DNA from: a virus
Taxonomy: Duplodnaviria > Heunggongvirae > Uroviricota > Caudoviricetes
Reading direction: 5' to 3' (one strand)
Length of the DNA stretch: 11,283 bases
Virus record (IMG/VR): IMGVR_UViG_2675903654_000023
Shown: positions 3,443 through 9,582 of the stretch, in pieces
Position numbering within the stretch: position 1 is the first letter of the stretch
Layout of the letters: every line of letters begins with the position of its first letter
Translations under genes and position numbers: made by a program
The notes under the pieces: model-generated
Database searches by the model: none
Seen by the model: only the letters and a program-made list of their open reading frames with translations
What the model was told of the DNA's origin: nothing

Positions 3443-5518
3443 CTATTTATTGGAAAATAAATTCTCAAGCTTGCTAATTCTGGCTTCCAGTTTCTGCCGC
3501 TCTCTCCGCTGATATGCAGCTTCCAGCCAGAGACATTGATCAGCACGAATGCCCCATCGGTTTCCCGCTGGCGTAACCAGCAGCCTGCCCTCAGGCTTTA
3601 CAATCTCTGTCCAGGCTTCTTTCTTGACGATTTGCTGCATTGATACATCCAAAATAGAAGAATACTCGGCAGGATGCTCAACCACTTCCTCAGGGATAAT
3701 CTCGTACTGGTCTTGCCATTCATCGTAACAGAGCAGGCCAAATCGAGTCCCGTCGATTCCTTTCGACTCGAATGCCTCTTTAACCTGTTGTGCAATAACG
3801 CCAAAATGCCAACGTGCGCCAGCCTGCCCCTTTTCTTTAATAGAATTCAGCCACTGAAAAGCGATTATTGAAACTTCCCCCCACGCGTCAAGTATTGCAT
3901 TTTCATCAACAGCCATGAATTTCGATAGCTCTGATACTTTAATCGGCTGTGATTTTTCACGGCCGTCTGAAGTATTAATTGAACCAGTGCCTGCAAAAAC
4001 GGTGCTCCAGCGGTTTACGATATCACCCAAAGGTGTTGAGTTATCATTACCAGGGGTTAACGCGCGCTGGGAGACTGCGGCAGGCTTAATCTGGAGACGC
4101 ACCTCATTTCCGGATACAAATTTTAAACTAGTGTCGCCTGTTGTACCTAAATAAGTCCCGTTTACATCAGTTGTCACAAAGCCGTGAAAGTTACCGGTCG
4201 CCCCGCCGCGCCAGCTTATGGCGTAAGTTAATTGCGACGGATCTATGCCAAATCCTGCAGCGCCATTCTGGAACATCTTGCCAAGGTTCGGAGCATAATA
4301 GCCATAGCCATTCATCTGTCGGACATTTATAGCTACGTTCGCTCCCCGAGCCGCTTTTAAATGCTCAATATAAACGCCGCTTTGTTCACCTACAATGCCA
4401 GTACTTCCAAGCAAAACATCATTGATATATACCCCTCTGCGGTCGAGTATCGTCCCGGTTCCATTATGTGATGGGGATGAATAAAATCCCTGCATGTTTT
4501 CCAGAGTTCCGCTTCCGGCGTAATTAATACGATCTTGAAAGCTGAAAGCGTGATTTTGAGCGTGGCCGCCAGTTATGATTAGCGTTGAATCAAAAGCTCC
4601 ATATCCGCCATAGTCGGAGGCCTGATTAATAACTGTCTTATCTGCGAAGGCGTGGCAGTTCGTTGGCGCGTTATCGATACGACGAGCCACGTTTATGGCG
4701 TCTCTTAGCGAATCAGGCGACGGCCATGTAGCGCCAGCCACGCCGACTGGCTGGTCGCCAACTATAAGATTTCCGTACGTGGTTGAGATGCGTAAACCGC
4801 CTGTCATTGTGTCGCCGCGCTTGTCGACTGCGTTACCTACCCTTTTGACTCCATCAGGCTGAGCCAGGGTTATCAGTACGTCAGAGGCGCTACCGCTTTG
4901 TGGAACAACAGTAATTGGATTTCCTGATGAATCGAAAGCCAATAGCTGATTTGCTCGCATCGACACGCCAGGAACTGGGCCTACATAACTCTCCGGAACC
5001 CGTAGCGTGCGGTTGAAGTTAACGTTGTTAAGCGTATCAACATAATTTTTAGTGGCTGCATCTTGGGGGGTTGAAGGATCGCGTAAGTTTCTGATGTAAT
5101 TGTTAAGCGCATCATAATAATTTGCCACGAATGACGGCTTACGCAGCGCCAAGCTAAACCAACTTCGAACCTGCTGGATCAGCATCGTTAGCTTATCAAA
5201 AGCATCCTCATGCACTTCTGCAAAGAACTTACCCTGATTACGCAAATCAGTTTCCTGCGTAACCGGGAGCTCTCGTGATATAGAAATCTGATAACCGCTA
5301 ACCAATGCCTTCGACAGAATTATATTGCCACCATTGTATCCTCCAGCCCCAGTAACTATGTAATCAGTGTCAAGAATCAGCTCTGTGATGTTCTCGTTCA
5401 GGTCAACAACCTGCACTACTAAATCAGATTTCTGGAAAATCCTGAAGGTATAAGGGAATGTCGTTGTAACACCGTTACCGGTGTATTCGTTGTGGTCAAC
5501 TTCGGTTGAGACCGTCAT
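3443..5518 (-). CDS. Tailspike / tail fibre protein with a C-terminal intramolecular chaperone (peptidase S74-like) domain
   Basis: 691 aa. The N-terminal roughly 120 aa resemble the particle-binding N-domain of podovirus tail fibres/tailspikes (YTGNGVTTTFPYTF...). The central region is Gly/Asn/Thr-rich, consistent with a beta-helix receptor-binding or depolymerase domain. The C-terminal roughly 175 aa start with an S-D-x-R-x-K motif (SDGREK, about residue 517, nt about 3968-3970), the hallmark of self-cleaving chaperone domains. RBS GGAG lies 7 nt upstream of the ATG at 5518. Confidence 0.85.
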   Translation of the reverse strand: MTVSTEVDHNEYTGNGVTTTFPYTFRIFQKSDLVVQVVDLNENITELILDTDYIVTGAGGYNGGNIILSKALVSGYQISISRELPVTQETDLRNQGKFFAEVHEDAFDKLTMLIQQVRSWFSLALRKPSFVANYYDALNNYIRNLRDPSTPQDAATKNYVDTLNNVNFNRTLRVPESYVGPVPGVSMRANQLLAFDSSGNPITVVPQSGSASDVLITLAQPDGVKRVGNAVDKRGDTMTGGLRISTTYGNLIVGDQPVGVAGATWPSPDSLRDAINVARRIDNAPTNCHAFADKTVINQASDYGGYGAFDSTLIITGGHAQNHAFSFQDRINYAGSGTLENMQGFYSSPSHNGTGTILDRRGVYINDVLLGSTGIVGEQSGVYIEHLKAARGANVAINVRQMNGYGYYAPNLGKMFQNGAAGFGIDPSQLTYAISWRGGATGNFHGFVTTDVNGTYLGTTGDTSLKFVSGNEVRLQIKPAAVSQRALTPGNDNSTPLGDIVNRWSTVFAGTGSINTSDGREKSQPIKVSELSKFMAVDENAILDAWGEVSIIAFQWLNSIKEKGQAGARWHFGVIAQQVKEAFESKGIDGTRFGLLCYDEWQDQYEIIPEEVVEHPAEYSSILDVSMQQIVKKEAWTEIVKPEGRLLVTPAGNRWGIRADQCLWLEAAYQRRERQKLEARISKLENLFSNK

Positions 5519-5674: not shown

Positions 5675-5694
5675 TACTGTATATTTATACAGTT
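5675..5694. promoter_or_regulatory. LexA (SOS) box
   Basis: Seen directly: TACTGTATATTTATACAGTT, matching the CTGT-N8-ACAG LexA consensus (TACTGTATATATATACAGTA) at 18 of 20 positions. It ends 19 nt upstream of the ATG at 5714. A possible -35 (TTGATA, 5671-5676) abuts it. Confidence 0.7.
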
Positions 5695-5713: not shown

Positions 5714-5971
5714 ATGCAGCAGTATCACTATCCACTGGAAGACGGATTTACCGAAAGGATTCACACGCCGGGAGGCGTCAGGTCACTGGTGGAGGGATCG
5801 CACTTGATGAAATTACTCCGGGATCTCGATAAGGATGGATTTAATGTCGATGGCCCACTTGCCGAACTGACTGCACTGATTAACTACGTCACCAGCTCAC
5901 AGATGTCTATGCGGGATCTGCAAACACATCTCGACTATTGTGCCGAACAATTACGAAAACAAACCAGATAA
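5714..5971 (+). CDS. Small stand-alone antirepressor C-domain protein (85 aa), probably SOS-controlled
   Basis: RBS GGAG (5702-5705) precedes the ATG at 5714. The protein aligns without gaps over about 72 residues with the shared C-terminal domain of the two larger antirepressor-like proteins, at roughly 45-50% identity by eye (IHTPGGV...LMKLL...DG..V.G..AELT...RDLQTH..Y). The LexA box lies immediately upstream. Confidence 0.6.
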   Translation: MQQYHYPLEDGFTERIHTPGGVRSLVEGSHLMKLLRDLDKDGFNVDGPLAELTALINYVTSSQMSMRDLQTHLDYCAEQLRKQTR

Positions 5972-5974
5972 GGT

Positions 5975-6003
5975 TTGCAATTACCAAGTGGAGTGCTTAT
6001 ATT
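5975..6003 (+). promoter_or_regulatory. Sigma70-type promoter of the plus-arm sRNA-like element
   Basis: Seen directly: -35 TTGCAA (5975-5980), 17-nt spacer, -10 TATATT (5998-6003). It begins 4 nt after the stop codon of the 85-aa gene. Confidence 0.5.
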
Positions 6004-6017
6004 TACCTTTGCGGTAA
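6003..6017. promoter_or_regulatory. Palindromic operator-like site TTACC-N5-GGTAA (copy 2 of 4), overlapping the -10/+1 of the sRNA promoter
   Basis: Seen directly: ATTTACCtttgcGGTAAAT, an extended 7-5-7 palindrome. Confidence 0.5.
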
Positions 6018-6130
6018 ATTTACATCGCACTCCTCTTGTGCCATAGTAATCGGGCACTGGCAAAATCCAGTGCCGGGATTGGCGTCCCGGATTACTACAG
6101 AGGCACATATGCCGCATAAGCGGTTTTTTT
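6010..6130 (+). ncRNA. Candidate structured small RNA / terminated leader (plus arm)
   Basis: Bounded by the promoter above and an intrinsic terminator (GCCGC-ATAA-GCGG followed by seven T, about 6111-6130). The core (about 6004-6097) is more than 95% identical to the inverted copy at 8993-9086. It contains stable hairpins (GGCACTGG-CAAAAT-CCAGTGCC and CCGGGA-TTGGCG-TCCCGG). No conserved ORF spans it. Confidence 0.5.
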
Positions 6131-6225
6131 ATGTGTAAAACGCACCTATTCTATGGTGGGCTGTGTGGGGGCACCGAAAGGTGCGCCGGGTCCTTTGTAG
6201 CCGGTTACGCCAACTCTGCACAGTT

Positions 6226-6256
6226 CACCACCAACCGATTGGCGTCGGTAGTGGTG
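6226..6256 (+). promoter_or_regulatory. Leader hairpin upstream of the Bro-N antirepressor RBS, loop UUGGCG
   Basis: Seen directly: CACCACC-A-ACCGA-TTGGCG-TCGGT-A-GTGGTG. The loop is identical to the hairpin-2 loop of the plus-arm sRNA element. The hairpin ends about 27 nt before the ATG at 6284. Confidence 0.45.
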
Positions 6257-6283
6257 ATTAACCTAACTACAAAGGTGATCACT

Positions 6284-6970
6284 ATGACTGCTAACGTAAC
6301 CCCATCTGTTTTTCATTTTGAATCAGAAGCAACCATTCGAGCCATTGTTATTGATGGAAATCCTTGGTTTGTTGCCAAAGACGTTATTAAAGCTCTTCAA
6401 CTGACAAACCCCACTATGTCAATAAAATCTCTTGATGATGATGAAAGGGCTAAATTTAACTTAGGCCGTCAAGGCGAAACCAATATTATCAACGAGTCAG
6501 GCCTCTACACACTGATCCTCCGCTGCCGCGACGCAGTGACACCAGGCACTATCCCCTACCGCTTTCGTAAATGGGTTACAGGTGAGGTTCTTCCTCAGAT
6601 CCGCCGCACCGGAAGTTACATTAAAAACTCGCTCCCGCAGGAAGAACGCATAAAGATGGTTGCCGACCAGGTAGCCAACGCCACGGCGTCAGCAGTGATG
6701 AAGGCGATGAAGATAGAGAACAAAACCTACAGCGCCCCGCTGAAGCCAGGCTACCGCAGCCTGATTCACTCGCCGTCTGGTGTTCTCGGCCTGACGGAGA
6801 ACTCACTGCTGATGAATCTGCTGAACCAGTTACAGGAAGACGGGCACGACGTATCGGGCGCGGCGGCGGAGCTGACCACCATGTTCTGCTACATCGTCGG
6901 TGTGAGCAAATGCCTGCGTGATATCCAGACGCACGCGGAGTACATCAACGACAAGGCTGGGTTCTTCTGA
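6284..6970 (+). CDS. Antirepressor-like protein: N-terminal Bro-N domain plus shared C-terminal domain
   Basis: Internal ATG of track ORF 6131-6970, with RBS AGGTGA 5 nt upstream. The N-terminus has Bro-N motifs (IRAIVIDGNPWFVAKDV...GLYTLILRCR...FRKWVTGEVLPQIRRTG). The C-terminal roughly 80 aa are identical to those of the convergent gene at 8144-8800. Confidence 0.8.
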   Translation: MTANVTPSVFHFESEATIRAIVIDGNPWFVAKDVIKALQLTNPTMSIKSLDDDERAKFNLGRQGETNIINESGLYTLILRCRDAVTPGTIPYRFRKWVTGEVLPQIRRTGSYIKNSLPQEERIKMVADQVANATASAVMKAMKIENKTYSAPLKPGYRSLIHSPSGVLGLTENSLLMNLLNQLQEDGHDVSGAAAELTTMFCYIVGVSKCLRDIQTHAEYINDKAGFF

Positions 6971-6993
6971 CGGGCGGCGGCACAGGGATGTGC
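6730..6993. repeat. Inner inverted repeat, left arm (partner 8121-8385)
   Basis: Seen directly by reverse-complement comparison. About 230 bp (6763-6993) are near-identical to the reverse complement of 8121-8352, with one mismatch noticed. Identity drops to roughly 90% over the preceding 30 bp and is then lost. It covers the shared C-domain coding sequence plus a 3' hairpin (GGCACAGGGATGTGCC). Confidence 0.85.
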
Positions 6994-7042
6994 CTTTAAA
7001 TAATTCTGTACAGATTGCAGACTGTGGGTGAATAGCGTACTA

Positions 7043-7057
7043 TTACCTCAAGGGTAA
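7043..7057. promoter_or_regulatory. Palindromic operator-like site TTACC-N5-GGTAA (copy 3 of 4), upstream of the central module
   Basis: Seen directly: aTTACCtcaagGGTAAa. It is followed by a second inverted repeat (ACGGATT-N14-AATCCGT, 7059-7086) that overlaps a candidate promoter. Confidence 0.45.
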
Positions 7058-7063
7058 ACGGAT

Positions 7064-7093
7064 TGGTTTCATTTTTATTAATCCGTGTAATGA
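7064..7093 (+). promoter_or_regulatory. Candidate promoter of the central two-gene module
   Basis: Possible -35 TTGGTT (7064-7069), 18-nt spacer, -10 TAATGA (7088-7093). This is a weak call from reading the sequence only. Confidence 0.3.
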
Positions 7094-7117
7094 ACTTATG
7101 AGATATGAGGTAATGTC

Positions 7118-7297
7118 ATGCGAAACGAAAAATTGCAGATGCGTAGAGCGCAAGCTGCCGCAAGACGTTCTTTCAATGGAAGCGTAGAGTACGTAAAAGT
7201 TACTATGACAAAAGATCACGCAAGTCGCGTATCCCGCGCTTTCTTTGATTCTCGTAACAATAAGGAAAATTATGAGTTCGTCTGCGTCGCAGAATGA
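7118..7297 (+). CDS. Small basic protein (59 aa), candidate antitoxin or regulator of the central module
   Basis: Absent from the ORF track, presumably below its length cut-off; hand-translated as MRNEKLQMRRAQAAARRSFNGSVEYVKVTMTKDHASRVSRAFFDSRNNKENYEFVCVAE. Strong RBS GAGG 7 nt upstream of the ATG at 7118. Its 3' end overlaps the start of the next gene by 26 nt in a different frame. Confidence 0.45.
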   Translation: MRNEKLQMRRAQAAARRSFNGSVEYVKVTMTKDHASRVSRAFFDSRNNKENYEFVCVAE

Positions 7298-7817
7298 TAA
7301 AAATCAAGTTGTCAGATATAAGGGTCGAGTGTTGCATACGCAAAATTTCTCGGCCCTTTGTGCATCTGATCTTGAGCTGAAGAAAGTATCTGATGCCTTT
7401 ACCCAGTATTGGAAAACGGGATACCATCCATCTCTTGGTAAAGATGCTGCATTTGCTCGTCCGACAGAAATGCTTAAACTAAATGTCAGGCATACTCATG
7501 TCGATAACCAAGACTATATTCCAGAAGATAGTGATAAAAAACACACTGGTAAAAAATCATCTTGGGATGCATGGAAAAATATAGCGTCTGTACAAGTAAA
7601 ATGCATACCAACAAGTGATTGCTTTTTAGTTTATTCGGTAAATCACAATCGTGATGCGCTGGTTATGTTTTTTGTTGACGCAGATGCTCACAACATAACT
7701 GAGCAAGAAGAGTTTAAAGAGGAAGCAATCACTATCAGTTATCAATTCTTTGAGAAAACAAAAACAGAACCAATGCCTTTAGAAGAAGATCTTTTTTCTG
7801 ATAAATGGAAGGAATAG
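7272..7817 (+). CDS. Hypothetical protein (181 aa), candidate toxin; weak YafO-like resemblance
   Basis: Internal ATG of track ORF 7245-7817, with RBS AAGGA 5 nt upstream. AT-rich coding sequence. Segments (GKDAAF...LNVRHTHV...CFLVYSV...ALVMFFVDADAH) resemble motifs I recall from YafO-family toxins; this is from memory and unverified. An intrinsic terminator follows directly. Confidence 0.55.
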   Translation: MSSSASQNDKNQVVRYKGRVLHTQNFSALCASDLELKKVSDAFTQYWKTGYHPSLGKDAAFARPTEMLKLNVRHTHVDNQDYIPEDSDKKHTGKKSSWDAWKNIASVQVKCIPTSDCFLVYSVNHNRDALVMFFVDADAHNITEQEEFKEEAITISYQFFEKTKTEPMPLEEDLFSDKWKE

Positions 7818-7837
7818 CCCGCAGCGCGGGCTTTTTT
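7817..7837 (+). terminator. Intrinsic terminator of the central module
   Basis: Seen directly: stem GCCCGC (7817-7822), loop AGC, stem GCGGGC (7826-7831), then six T (7832-7837). It overlaps the stop codon. Confidence 0.7.
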
Positions 7838-7909
7838 GTGGACGAAACAAAAGTCAGTGCTACACTCATTGACGCCACATTGAGGTGGCTTATAGATGGA
7901 AATTTCACA

Positions 7910-8071
7910 ATGAAAAAAGCATTTGCTGCACTGTTCGTTTTGTTGTCTCTGGTAGCTTCAACTCAGGCCTTTGCCGGTCGTTGTCAGCACGACAGCGATA
8001 CTGCCGCTGACGGCTCCCGCTGCGGTGGGCGTTCTGCGGATTCCCGCCCGGGCGGCGGTGGCATTCGTTAA
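7910..8071 (+). CDS. Hypothetical small secreted peptide (53 aa precursor, about 31 aa mature, two Cys), possibly leaderless
   Basis: Internal ATG of track ORF 7805-8071. Signal peptide MKKAFAALFVLLSLVASTQAFA followed by a Gly/Arg/Asp-rich tail. A candidate promoter (TTGACG 7869-7874, TATAGA 7891-7896) would place the transcript start only a few nt before the ATG. No convincing Shine-Dalgarno. Coding status is uncertain. Confidence 0.3.
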   Translation: MKKAFAALFVLLSLVASTQAFAGRCQHDSDTAADGSRCGGRSADSRPGGGGIR

Positions 8072-8094
8072 AAACAAGGCCGCGAAAGCGGCCT
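8070..8094 (-). terminator. Candidate intrinsic terminator downstream of the AntA-type antirepressor gene
   Basis: Plus strand AGGCCGC-GAAA-GCGGCCT (8077-8094). On the minus strand this hairpin is followed by TGTTTTT. A 12-bp perfect palindrome GTGACATGTCAC (8095-8106) lies adjacent. Confidence 0.4.
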
Positions 8095-8120
8095 GTGACA
8101 TGTCACGCTAGTTTCGTTTT

Positions 8121-8385
8121 GCACGTCCCTGTGCCGCCGCCCGTCAGAAGAACCCAGCCTTGTCGTTGATGTACTCCGCGTGCGTCTGGATATCACGCAG
8201 GCATTTGCTCACACCGACGATGTAGCAGAACATGGTGGTCAGCTCCGCCGCCGCGCCCGATACGTCGTGCCCGTCTTCCTGTAACTGGTTCAGCAGATTC
8301 ATCAGCAGTGAGTTCTCCGTCAGGCCGAGAACACCAGACGGCGAGTGAATCAAACTGCGGTAGCCGGGCTTCAGTGGGGCGCTGT
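8121..8385. repeat. Inner inverted repeat, right arm (partner 6730-6993)
   Basis: Reverse complement is near-identical to 6763-6993; see the left-arm entry. Confidence 0.85.
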
Positions 8386-8800
8386 ATTCTTTTTTGTCTT
8401 CCAGCTTGATCGCCTCCATAATGGCGGGCATGAAGCCTGACAAGACCTTCTCCACTTTTGTTTCTTGTTGTCTTAAACGTTTCTCGCATTCAATGAAGTA
8501 GCGTCGTACCTGACGACCTTTTTCGTTACGCTCGACCATCGCCAGCTCTTTGGCTGTATCAAGGGTGAGGTGGTACTCTTTGCGGTTGTGGCCGCCTCTA
8601 CCAGATGTTTGCTTTCCCAAATTGGAAAGCAAAATATAGTCTTGATTTTCAATGAATTCGTATTCTGATATGCGATTTGTAATCCATGCTGCAAACACCT
8701 TTTTAACACCTAAAAAAGCGTGCAGATCGCGGGCATTACAAAGTAGGGCTGTTTCGTTAGATATAGTGCCGTTGAATACGGGGATGAGTTGAGCGTTCAT
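8144..8800 (-). CDS. Antirepressor-like protein: N-terminal AntA-type domain plus shared C-terminal domain
   Basis: The N-terminus matches the AntA/AntB antirepressor N-domain pattern (LIPVFNGT...[10 protein letters not shown]...W...EYEF...[27 protein letters not shown]). The C-terminal roughly 80 aa are identical to those of the 6284-6970 product. RBS GGAG 8 nt upstream of the ATG at 8800. Confidence 0.85.
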
Positions 8801-8828
8801 GATGGCGTCTCCACTTAGCGAATTACAT

Positions 8829-8859
8829 CACCACCGCTGAGACCAATCAGATGGTGGTG
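8829..8859 (-). promoter_or_regulatory. Leader hairpin upstream of the AntA-type antirepressor RBS, loop UUGGUC
   Basis: Minus-strand reading: CACCACC-AT-CTGA-TTGGTC-TCAG-C-GGTGGTG. The loop is identical to the hairpin-2 loop of the minus-arm sRNA element, and the stem differs from the plus-arm leader by compensatory changes. Confidence 0.45.
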
Positions 8860-8958
8860 AACTGAACGGAGTTGGTCTTACCGGCCTAAGTGGTACCGGC
8901 GTCCTTTCGGACCCCCATTCAGCCCACCATAATTCTGGCATGACTGTGCTATACGCAT

Positions 8959-9080
8959 AAAAAAAACCACGTCTGGCGTGGTATGCGCCACTTAGTAATC
9001 CGGGAGACCAATCCCGGCACTGGATTTTGCCAGTGCATGATTACTATGGCACAAGAGGAGTGCGATGTAAATTTACCGCA
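8959..9080 (-). ncRNA. Candidate structured small RNA / terminated leader (minus arm)
   Basis: Inverted copy of the 6010-6130 element. Its own intrinsic terminator on the minus strand is ACCACG-CCAGA-CGTGGT followed by eight T (plus coordinates about 8959-8982), different in sequence from the plus-arm terminator. Hairpin-2 reads CCGGGA-TTGGTC-TCCCGG. Confidence 0.5.
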
Positions 9081-9087
9081 AAGGTAA
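9073..9087. promoter_or_regulatory. Palindromic operator-like site TTACC-N5-GGTAA (copy 4 of 4), overlapping the -10/+1 of the minus-arm sRNA promoter
   Basis: Seen directly: TTTACCgcaaaGGTAA. It is part of the outer inverted repeat. Confidence 0.5.
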
Positions 9088-9116
9088 TGATAAGCGCTAA
9101 GAAATATTAAAATCAA
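9087..9116 (-). promoter_or_regulatory. Sigma70-type promoter of the minus-arm sRNA-like element
   Basis: Minus-strand reading: -35 TTGATT (plus 9111-9116), 18-nt spacer, -10 TATCAT (plus 9087-9092). Sequence upstream of the -10 is not homologous to the plus-arm promoter, yet a promoter is retained. Confidence 0.45.
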
Positions 9117-9234: not shown

Positions 9235-9582
9235 GTGCCATTCCACGGCGCAGAGCTTTATGTTGTCAATCACAACGGCGAACCGTATACCCCAATGAAA
9301 CCTATCGTTGAGGGAATGGGGCTAGACTGGAAATCTCAACATAAGAAGATTTCTCAACGCTTCTCGAAGGGTATGGTGGAAATCACCATACCTTCTGCCG
9401 GTGGGGTGCAAGCCATGATTTGTATGGCTTTACGAAAATTGGCAGCTTGGTTGAACAGCATCAGCCCTAACAAAGTCCGCCCTGAAATCCGCGAAAGTAT
9501 TGAAACATCAACCGTATCGATATCGACACGGTTGATTATGACGGTAACTTATTTCCGTGTGTCCTATTTCTCCCGCCACTAA
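9235..9582 (+). pseudogene. Probable remnant of an antirepressor N-terminal (P22_AR_N-like) domain gene
   Basis: The track ORF starts at a GTG with no RBS. Residues about 8-85 (LYVVNHNGEPYTPMKPIVEGMGLDWKSQHKKISQRF...LRKLAAWLNSISPNKVRPEIRE) resemble antirepressor N-terminal domains as I recall them. The last roughly 30 residues look like out-of-frame read-through. It ends back-to-back with the convergent 98-aa gene. Confidence 0.35.

Follow-up and report, generated by a model that had tools for sequence, protein, structure and literature searches.

Three genes for one SPC32H-type antirepressor domain in the probable anti-immunity region of an epsilon15-like Escherichia coli prophage

The viral record IMGVR_UViG_2675903654_000023 (Caudoviricetes) is a stretch of 11,283 nucleotides (nt), hereafter the window, and is probably the anti-immunity region of an epsilon15-like (Uetakevirus) Escherichia coli prophage in which three genes encode a single type of effector, the antirepressor domain Ant known from phage SPC32H. 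The first gene, here called ant85 (5714-5971, plus strand), encodes this domain alone and lies behind a LexA box. The other two converge on each other and carry the domain at the C-terminal end of longer proteins, on the left behind a Bro-N domain (6284-6970, plus strand) and on the right behind an AntA domain (8144-8800, minus strand), and each is preceded by an RNA leader that combines IsrK-like and C4 elements. Positions are those of the window unless another record is named.

The product of ant85 is an 85 amino acid (aa) orthologue of SPC32H Ant. A phmmer search against the PDB returned one match, 'Anti-repressor protein' in chain E of entry 5D50 (residues 2-84 against 3-85, E-value 1.4e-46), which holds the 86 aa SPC32H Ant in complex with its repressor. 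SPC32H is an epsilon15-like phage of Salmonella whose Ant and Rep proteins are represented by PDB entries 5D4Z and 5D50. According to PMC9638917, its Ant is small and helical and forms a tetramer, which takes up two Rep dimers and disrupts the DNA-binding Rep tetramer. Both longer proteins match the same chain over its residues 3-79, the Bro-N protein with residues 147-223 (E-value 1.1e-13) and the AntA protein with residues 137-213 (E-value 4.6e-14), and all three proteins match PHROG 450, which is listed as of 'unknown function'. An earlier note on this DNA, made from the sequence alone, had placed a third, diverged copy of the shared domain at 5714-5971. This copy is real, being 40% identical to the C-domain of the long proteins and matching the same solved structure.

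Pfam and NCBIfam contain no model for the Ant domain. A profile search of 1.84 billion representative proteins retrieved only 62 clusters with the domain. Most of these are stand-alone, at 80-130 aa; wherever the domain is fused, it forms the C-terminus behind AntA, Bro-N, ORF6N or Phage_pRha. A homologue search with the C-domain gave short proteins only, and the fused relatives came to light through the exhaustive search of representatives. When all N-module variants are aligned, the start of the invariant block coincides exactly with the start of the stand-alone protein. The repressor gp40 of the related phage phiV10 matches SPC32H Rep (5D50 chain A) with an E-value of 4e-42, and the cognate target type is therefore present in this group of phages. 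The supposition in the earlier note that the C-domain is the repressor-binding part thus gains real support from its whole-length homology to SPC32H Ant; that the fused form binds Rep is a prediction from this homology. The Bro-N protein is 82% identical to the tested antirepressor ORF4 of phage vB_EcoP_ZX5, itself a Bro-N protein, the two being identical from about residue 70 onward, that is over the last 160 or so residues. Overexpression of ORF4 lowered the number of lysogens from 1e9 to 1e6 per mL (PMC9782041), which is experimental support for a long form and indirect support for Rep release of the Ant type.

The left antirepressor is a 228 aa protein in which Bro-N (PF02498, residues 18-104, 4.4e-20, 72.5 bits against a gathering score of 25.6) is joined by a linker to the C-domain (residues 149-228, nt 6728-6967). 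The right antirepressor is built in the same way from AntA (PF08346, residues 22-92, 4.2e-26, 91.8 bits against a gathering score of 27), a linker and the C-domain (residues 139-218, nt 8147-8386), and has 218 aa. Both N-terminal assignments had been proposed from the sequence and are upheld by these Pfam searches, which found neither an ANT nor a KilAC domain in either protein. The long proteins are assigned to PHROGs 130 and 377, 'anti-repressor Ant', the right-arm protein to PHROG 377. The two C-domains are identical in 80 of 80 residues by BLASTP, as had been noticed before. At the DNA level they form an inner inverted repeat of 279 nt (6715-6993 and 8121-8399, 96% identical by repeat finder) that spans the C-domain coding sequence and a hairpin after the stop. 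A base-by-base walk found 227 nt without a mismatch (6762-6988), made up of the last 209 coding nt including the stop and 18 nt beyond it, whereas the 243 nt that encode the 80 residues and the stop contain four mismatches (6739, 6748, 6760 and 6761); the earlier count of one mismatch in about 230 bp was thus essentially right. The hairpin, GGCAC-AGGGAU-GUGCC, directly follows both stops (6971-6993 and 8121-8143), belongs to the repeat and has no U-tract. A longer left gene of 279 aa, extended in frame to 6131, was rejected because the extension traverses the C4 RNA and is missing from other leader types.

The similarity of the C-domains had been ascribed to recent gene conversion between the arms. 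In a sample of 111 C-domain coding copies from 85 related loci the 80-residue protein is identical in 74, and these copies comprise 93 DNA haplotypes in which third codon positions account for 49 of the 65 polymorphic sites. The protein is near-invariant although its copies differ at about 7 synonymous sites per pair, and the identity of the arms at the protein level therefore reflects strong purifying selection across the population, plus recombination. In the last 209 nt the average number of mismatches is 6.9 between loci, where 0.46% of pairs are identical, and 6.5 between the arms of one locus; because the two means are so close there is no general concerted evolution. Within-locus pairs with at most one mismatch number 3 of 28 against 0.27 expected (binomial P 0.0025, which is rough as the loci are not fully independent), and the window with none is among them. 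Recent conversion, or a recent crossover, is hence supported for the window as a sporadic event, but it is not what keeps the domains alike.

The near-invariance of all 80 residues, including the N-terminal half that lies outside the long helix, persists despite high synonymous diversity and denotes a constraint beyond the need of a generic oligomerisation helix. It is on this account improbable that the C-domain serves mainly as a tetramerisation scaffold while the N-modules (Bro-N, AntA, P22_AR_N, ORF6N and Rha) are the real effectors, acting on different repressors or on DNA; the C-domain would then contribute oligomeric state and not recognition of the repressor. Such a role would suit the tetrameric state given for SPC32H Ant in PMC9638917, the recurrence of these N-modules in many antirepressors with unrelated C-domains (PHROG matches) and the modest 40% identity of the fused domain to the proven Ant. 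It sits less well with the existence of the domain on its own, in proteins of 85-95 aa, with an invariant block that begins precisely where the stand-alone protein begins, and with P0013, a natural stand-alone Ant whose first half is ant85-like and whose second half is C-domain-like. This hybrid suggests that the two halves are functionally equivalent to their counterparts, and recombination between the two paralogue types apparently leaves them functional. A further stand-alone protein of the C-type, P0010 (95 aa), is encoded at about 6001-6288 of three Klebsiella loci (L088-L090) in a degraded island next to folD/cysS that also contains a Rap1a-like gene, AlpA and a HicA/HicB-like pair. Residues 1-14 of P0010 match the AntA and ORF6N fusions in their linker. 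No repressor lies nearby, and this context is therefore uninformative on the target.

The 5' leaders of the two long genes are inverted repeats as well (5992-6097 and 8993-9098 at 93%, 6184-6258 and 8827-8901 at 73%, by repeat finder), and, contrary to the earlier note, not everything outside the C-domain is divergent. The left leader begins with a promoter-like site found by consensus scan, TTTACA-17 nt-CATAGT with a TG extension (6019-6047, plus strand), inside the 93% repeat. The IsrK-like element that follows (6054-6130; Rfam isrK RF01394, 76.8 bits against a gathering score of 50) covers model positions 1-77, and its start at 6054 agrees with the transcription start expected from this site. 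It contains the decoy targets b1 (6079-6085) and a1 (6095-6103) and closes with an intrinsic terminator (6111-6130, terminator scan); the model c4-a1b1 (RF03163) overlaps it at 6041-6093 with 45.1 bits against 46.7. Downstream lies a C4 antisense RNA (6149-6235, plus strand; RF01695, 76.2 bits against a gathering score of 45) with a minimum-free-energy fold of -42.2 kcal/mol that matches the family structure. Its loop a' is CCUUUGUAG (6192-6200) and its single-stranded b' is ACGCCAA (6207-6213). These are Watson-Crick complements of a2, CUACAAAGG (6267-6275, 9 bp), and b2, UUGGCGU (6239-6245, 7 bp), respectively, and a2 overlaps the Shine-Dalgarno sequence AAGGUGA (6272-6278).

The right leader has the same order of elements on the minus strand. 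A scan located the promoter-like site TTTACA-17-CATAGT at 9043-9071, and the IsrK-like element at 8960-9036 (67.7 bits against the gathering score of 50, model positions 1-77) includes the decoys a1 (8988-8995) and b1 (9005-9011), with a terminator at 8959-8981. The right C4 RNA (8850-8934, 61.2 bits against a gathering score of 45, fold of -41.2 kcal/mol, again with the family structure) presents a' as CCACUUAG (8886-8893) and b' as AGACCAA (8872-8878), with perfect complementarity to a2, CUAAGUGG (8811-8818, 8 bp), and to b2, UUGGUCU (8840-8846, 7 bp). Here too a2 overlaps the Shine-Dalgarno sequence, GUGGAGA (8808-8814). In each arm a1 and b1 are the same alleles as that arm's own a2 and b2. 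No conserved coupling open reading frame (ORF) of the icd or orf45 kind is found between C4 and ant in the two leaders, and in the right arm there is a stop inside C4.

In all 46 distinct leaders from the related loci a' pairs with a2 over 8-9 bp and b' with b2 over 7 bp, entirely by Watson-Crick pairs. The decoy pairing of a' with a1 likewise holds in 46 of 46, and that of b' with b1 in 45 of 46, the exception being a recombinant leader (BroB_L045). The a and b elements have three alleles each, combined in six ways. Pairing was scored by loop-only helix counts and energies, by direct complementarity for each sequence and by anchored extraction of the elements. Other procedures were set aside: RNAduplex of whole C4 RNAs against whole leaders unfolds the C4 stem and is uninformative, regular-expression parsing let some leader types escape and was replaced by the anchored extraction, and column covariation on a MAFFT alignment (A2) was dropped owing to gaps inside the a elements and a one-column shift of b2 in the BroC leaders. 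Between the arms of the window the best helices reach 3 and 4 bp in one direction and 6 and 4 bp in the other, compared with 9 and 7 bp and 8 and 7 bp for the own targets, which predicts that the two C4 RNAs do not cross-react.

Single leaders show further peculiarities. The recombinant leader belongs to locus L045 (IMG/VR UViG_3300045988_096329), in which the shared C-domain occurs in three long antirepressor genes and two of these are identical over 243 nt; in this one hybrid leader the b1 decoy is of one type and mismatches its own C4. In loci L030 and L041 the inner part of the first hairpin of the IsrK-like element (alignment A2, columns 33-44) is changed from GGCAAAAUCC to its reverse complement GGAUUUUGCC with the outer stem kept, which looks like a small template-switch inversion within the hairpin. 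In the GenBank record of ZX5 (L087) a 37 aa 'ash family protein' is annotated at 2169-2282, almost wholly on the C4 RNA at 2155-2240 of that record, and is probably a mis-call of the RNA gene.

ant85 is controlled differently. A perfect LexA (SOS) box, CTGTATATTTATACAG, can be read in the sequence at 5677-5692 (plus strand), about 22 nt upstream of the gene, and 69 of 80 related loci have CTGT-N8-ACAG equally far from it. The box precedes ant85 only, the long genes having their C4/IsrK leaders instead. A terminator scan found none between ant85 and the left leader (5971-6054), and transcripts induced by SOS might extend into the left IsrK-like element and so contribute decoy RNA, coupling the left arm, and not the right, to the SOS response.

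It is proposed that ant85 acts as an SOS-triggered inducer and that the C-terminal domains of the convergent Bro-N~Ant and AntA~Ant proteins supply two further copies of the effector, each under its own promoter and a leader of the P1-immI and Gifsy-1-IsrK type. In the lysogen, C4 RNA released from the leader would pair through a' and b' with a2 and b2, cover the Shine-Dalgarno sequence and keep the gene off. The upstream terminated RNA with its decoys a1 and b1 would titrate C4 and turn translation on, so that the P1 and Gifsy-1 pictures could be reconciled by a choice of partner for a' and b', a2 and b2 for off or a1 and b1 for on. As the arms differ in their a and b alleles, neither C4 would silence the other arm, and the result would be one key held by two RNA locks and an SOS lock. 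The pay-off may be a second immunity in the style of P1 and P7, which would keep incoming relatives silent if they had either of two lock types and let the phage escape a resident's lock on superinfection.

Several points weigh against this reading, which is nevertheless judged probable as a whole. The independence of the two locks is a prediction from base pairing. At the 14 loci with two C4-type arms none of the 16 arm pairs shares both alleles and 7 share neither, but 9 share one of the two elements, and the absence of identical locks is confounded by the linkage of each N-module to one lock type. The leaders do without the icd or orf45 coupling ORF of the two studied systems, so that the mechanisms may not transfer exactly. 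Identity between the fused C-domain and the proven Ant is, as said, no more than 40%; the window, a contig of 11.3 kb, contains neither the immunity region nor the repressor gene; and an AlphaFold2 (AF2) model of the full Bro-N protein from a shallow alignment reached a mean pLDDT (predicted local distance difference test) of 49.8 and was left unused.

The relatives found by megablast are epsilon15-like podoviruses (Uetakevirus: phiV10, TL-2011b and vB_EcoP_ZX5). The region also occurs among complete E. coli genomes, in about 1,000 of the 5,426. No single megablast record covers the whole window at high identity, and the region must therefore be highly mosaic. The layout of the window is the same in the IMG/VR contig UViG_2693429700_000024, and an artefact of assembly is excluded by complete E. 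coli chromosomes and the sequenced phage TL-2011b, which have the two-arm layout too. The survey of arm numbers that the earlier note had called for gave 51 relatives with one arm, 23 with two or more and 9 that are undecidable. The predominance of single arms, the remnants in the region, such as a truncated P22_AR_N gene described below, and a cargo that is highly variable among relatives could be taken to mean that the second arm is a neutral by-product of mosaicism, brought in by inverted duplication or insertion and serving at most as redundancy. This is unlikely in view of the state of the arms. At every two-arm locus examined each has an intact ORF, promoter, terminator and C4 fold, and its a/b complementarity is perfect; purifying selection acts equally on the C-domain of either arm; and no arm pair repeats a lock type.

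The modular character of the family, already supposed from the two arms of the window, is borne out by the relatives. The same C-domain (96-100% identical) follows eight N-modules, which are four Bro-N, two AntA, P22_AR_N and ORF6N variants, and distant family members have a Phage_pRha module in this place. Any N-module can be found in either arm and the cargo in both orientations. Two loci, L057 and L026, have collinear flanks around a centre of 3,260 nt that is inverted at 98.4% identity, the breakpoints falling in the leader repeats with overlaps of about 270 nt; an inversion of 2,366 nt distinguishes L003 from L006; and the left arm of the window corresponds to the right arm of L004 (992 nt, 97.7%, inverted) with the cargo collinear. 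Isomers of this sort, with whole-block breakpoints in the leader repeats and the cargo either way round, together with the natural hybrid leader BroB_L045 that joins the b1 of one type to the C4 of another, recall the programmed invertible switches of the Mu G and P1 C segments and the shufflon, by which the block would choose the antirepressor to be expressed. Such a switch is highly improbable here. Comparison of the window ORFs with Pfam and PHROGs revealed no recombinase gene in or beside the block, and the repeats of 106-279 nt, those of about 270-280 nt in particular, fit homologous recombination and are not short crossover sites. Moreover each gene has its promoter and leader inside the repeat, so that inversion neither connects nor disconnects a promoter, and the isomers come from different strains and not from one population. 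The lack of a recombinase and the separate promoters argue for homologous recombination at the long repeats. Its substrates would be the nested inverted repeats, of which the outer pair comprises about 270 nt of leader and the inner about 280 nt of C-domain, and recombination between them would invert the block or the cargo, move modules between arms and phages and occasionally homogenise the C-domains, as in the window.

The cargo between the arms (7118-8071, plus strand) consists of a 59 aa ORF (7118-7297), a YafO-like toxin gene (7245-7817) and a gene for a small secreted or membrane protein (7805-8071), with matches to PHROGs 6685, 1651 and 3117/14503. The toxin assignment comes from Pfam (YafO_toxin, 9.1e-6) and the same name is used for relatives in RefSeq. 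The 59 aa ORF (PHROG 6685, unknown function) precedes and overlaps the toxin gene and could encode its antitoxin. The product of 7805-8071 has a signal-peptide-like N-terminus and matches PHROG 3117 and PHROG 14503, 'membrane associated protein' of the moron category; its RefSeq version has 53 aa, and it is the steadiest cargo gene among the relatives, its orientation flipping with the block. Neither the cargo nor the Ant proteins gave matches in PADLOC or NCBIfam. The block is flanked by a tailspike gene (3443-5518, minus strand) on one side and by virion genes (9898 onward, minus strand) on the other. Between the right arm and the virion genes lies a truncated P22-type antirepressor gene (9235-9582, plus strand), an N-domain alone without the C-domain (Pfam P22_AR_N, 6.6e-32, profile positions 4-95 of 115), which RefSeq annotates as a pseudogene in relatives. 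Like a fixed scar left by some earlier rearrangement, it is present beside every C4-type right arm in the relatives. It points away from the right arm and is opposite in orientation to the P22_AR_N gene that is intact in TL-2011b-type loci.

The arrangement combines features of several known systems. With SPC32H it shares ant85, a near-identical orthologue with a LexA box, C-domains that are homologous to the entire Ant, and a cognate Rep type encoded by related E. coli phages. Unlike SPC32H, the window also has an Ant-homologous domain as the C-terminus of proteins of 218-228 aa with Bro-N or AntA fronts, and these fused copies are 40% identical to the stand-alone Ant and stand under C4/IsrK leaders rather than LexA. 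The immI operon of P1 and P7 reportedly comprises the C4 antisense RNA, icd and ant1/ant2, and C4 occludes the ribosome-binding site. The window resembles it in having a C4 RNA in the antirepressor leader whose a' and b' are complementary to a2 and b2 at the ribosome-binding site and to a1 and b1 upstream. The allelic differences in a and b recall P1/P7 heteroimmunity, and the right-arm protein has the AntA domain of P1/P7 Ant. In contrast to P1 and P7, the window lacks an icd-like coupling ORF and has its a2 overlapping the Shine-Dalgarno sequence of ant itself, an intrinsic terminator stands between a1/b1 and C4, one phage carries two modules of different specificity, and the effector is of the SPC32H type and not ANT/KilAC.

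IsrK of Gifsy-1 is a short terminated RNA that induces the prophage and, acting in trans, switches on translation of the read-through mRNA for the antirepressor (Hershko-Shalev et al. 2016, PMC4825925). Both leaders of the window match isrK end to end including the terminator and have an antirepressor downstream, like the Gifsy-1 IsrK-orf45-anrP arrangement, but orf45 is not conserved (the extension 6131-6283 occurs only with one leader type), the phage is a podovirus and each prophage has two leaders with different pairing alleles. In the immI region of P22 (mnt, arc, sar RNA and ant) the likeness lies with the TL-2011b-type right arm, in which P22_AR_N and the same C-domain follow an Arc-like repressor and a sar RNA; in such relatives these are a third kind of lock. 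The window keeps only the truncated P22_AR_N remnant, and neither arc nor sar was found in it. A further comparison is with the phage regulators that have shuffled Bro-N, KilA-N, AntA, Rha and ORF6N domains. Interchangeable N-modules joined to alternative C-domains are common to these regulators and the block, but the C-partner in the window lacks a Pfam or NCBIfam model and yet has a solved and proven minimal antirepressor as its stand-alone homologue, so that the constant part would be the one of known activity. Finally, the block differs from the Gin, Cin and Hin segments and the shufflon in having no recombinase match and repeats of 106-279 nt. Every component is known, and the new combination is that of an SPC32H-type Ant fused to interchangeable N-modules with paired locks that are predicted not to cross-react.

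Two-domain antirepressors with Bro-N, KilA-N, AntA, Rha or ORF6N fronts are widespread in prophages, and they raise the general question of which half binds the repressor and what the other half does. The locus is a natural swap series in which at least five kinds of N-module precede the same C-domain, which also stands alone, and the constant half is homologous to a solved antirepressor, so that the role of each half is directly testable. The finding also exposes gaps in annotation: Pfam and NCBIfam do not model the Ant domain, PHROGs lists it as of 'unknown function', RefSeq calls the product of the stand-alone gene a 'hypothetical protein', and the ZX5 record has a coding sequence called over a C4 RNA. 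The three a and three b alleles, with three-way covariation of C4, decoy and target, amount to an RNA-specificity code that could show how C4 repression of the P1 type and IsrK activation of the Gifsy type combine, and whether heteroimmunity classes arise among E. coli prophages. More tentatively, the block may be a cassette that reassorts RNA lock, N-module and cargo independently within and between epsilon15-like phages, with the two locks as an arms-race adaptation. Its repertoire of locks would then comprise at least 3 x 3 C4 alleles as well as the P22-type Arc/sar and LexA, with the Rep-disabling domain constant throughout. If this were true, these phages would possess a combinatorial, RNA-encoded heteroimmunity code far richer than that of P1 and P7, and an invader would have two chances to get past the C4 of a resident.

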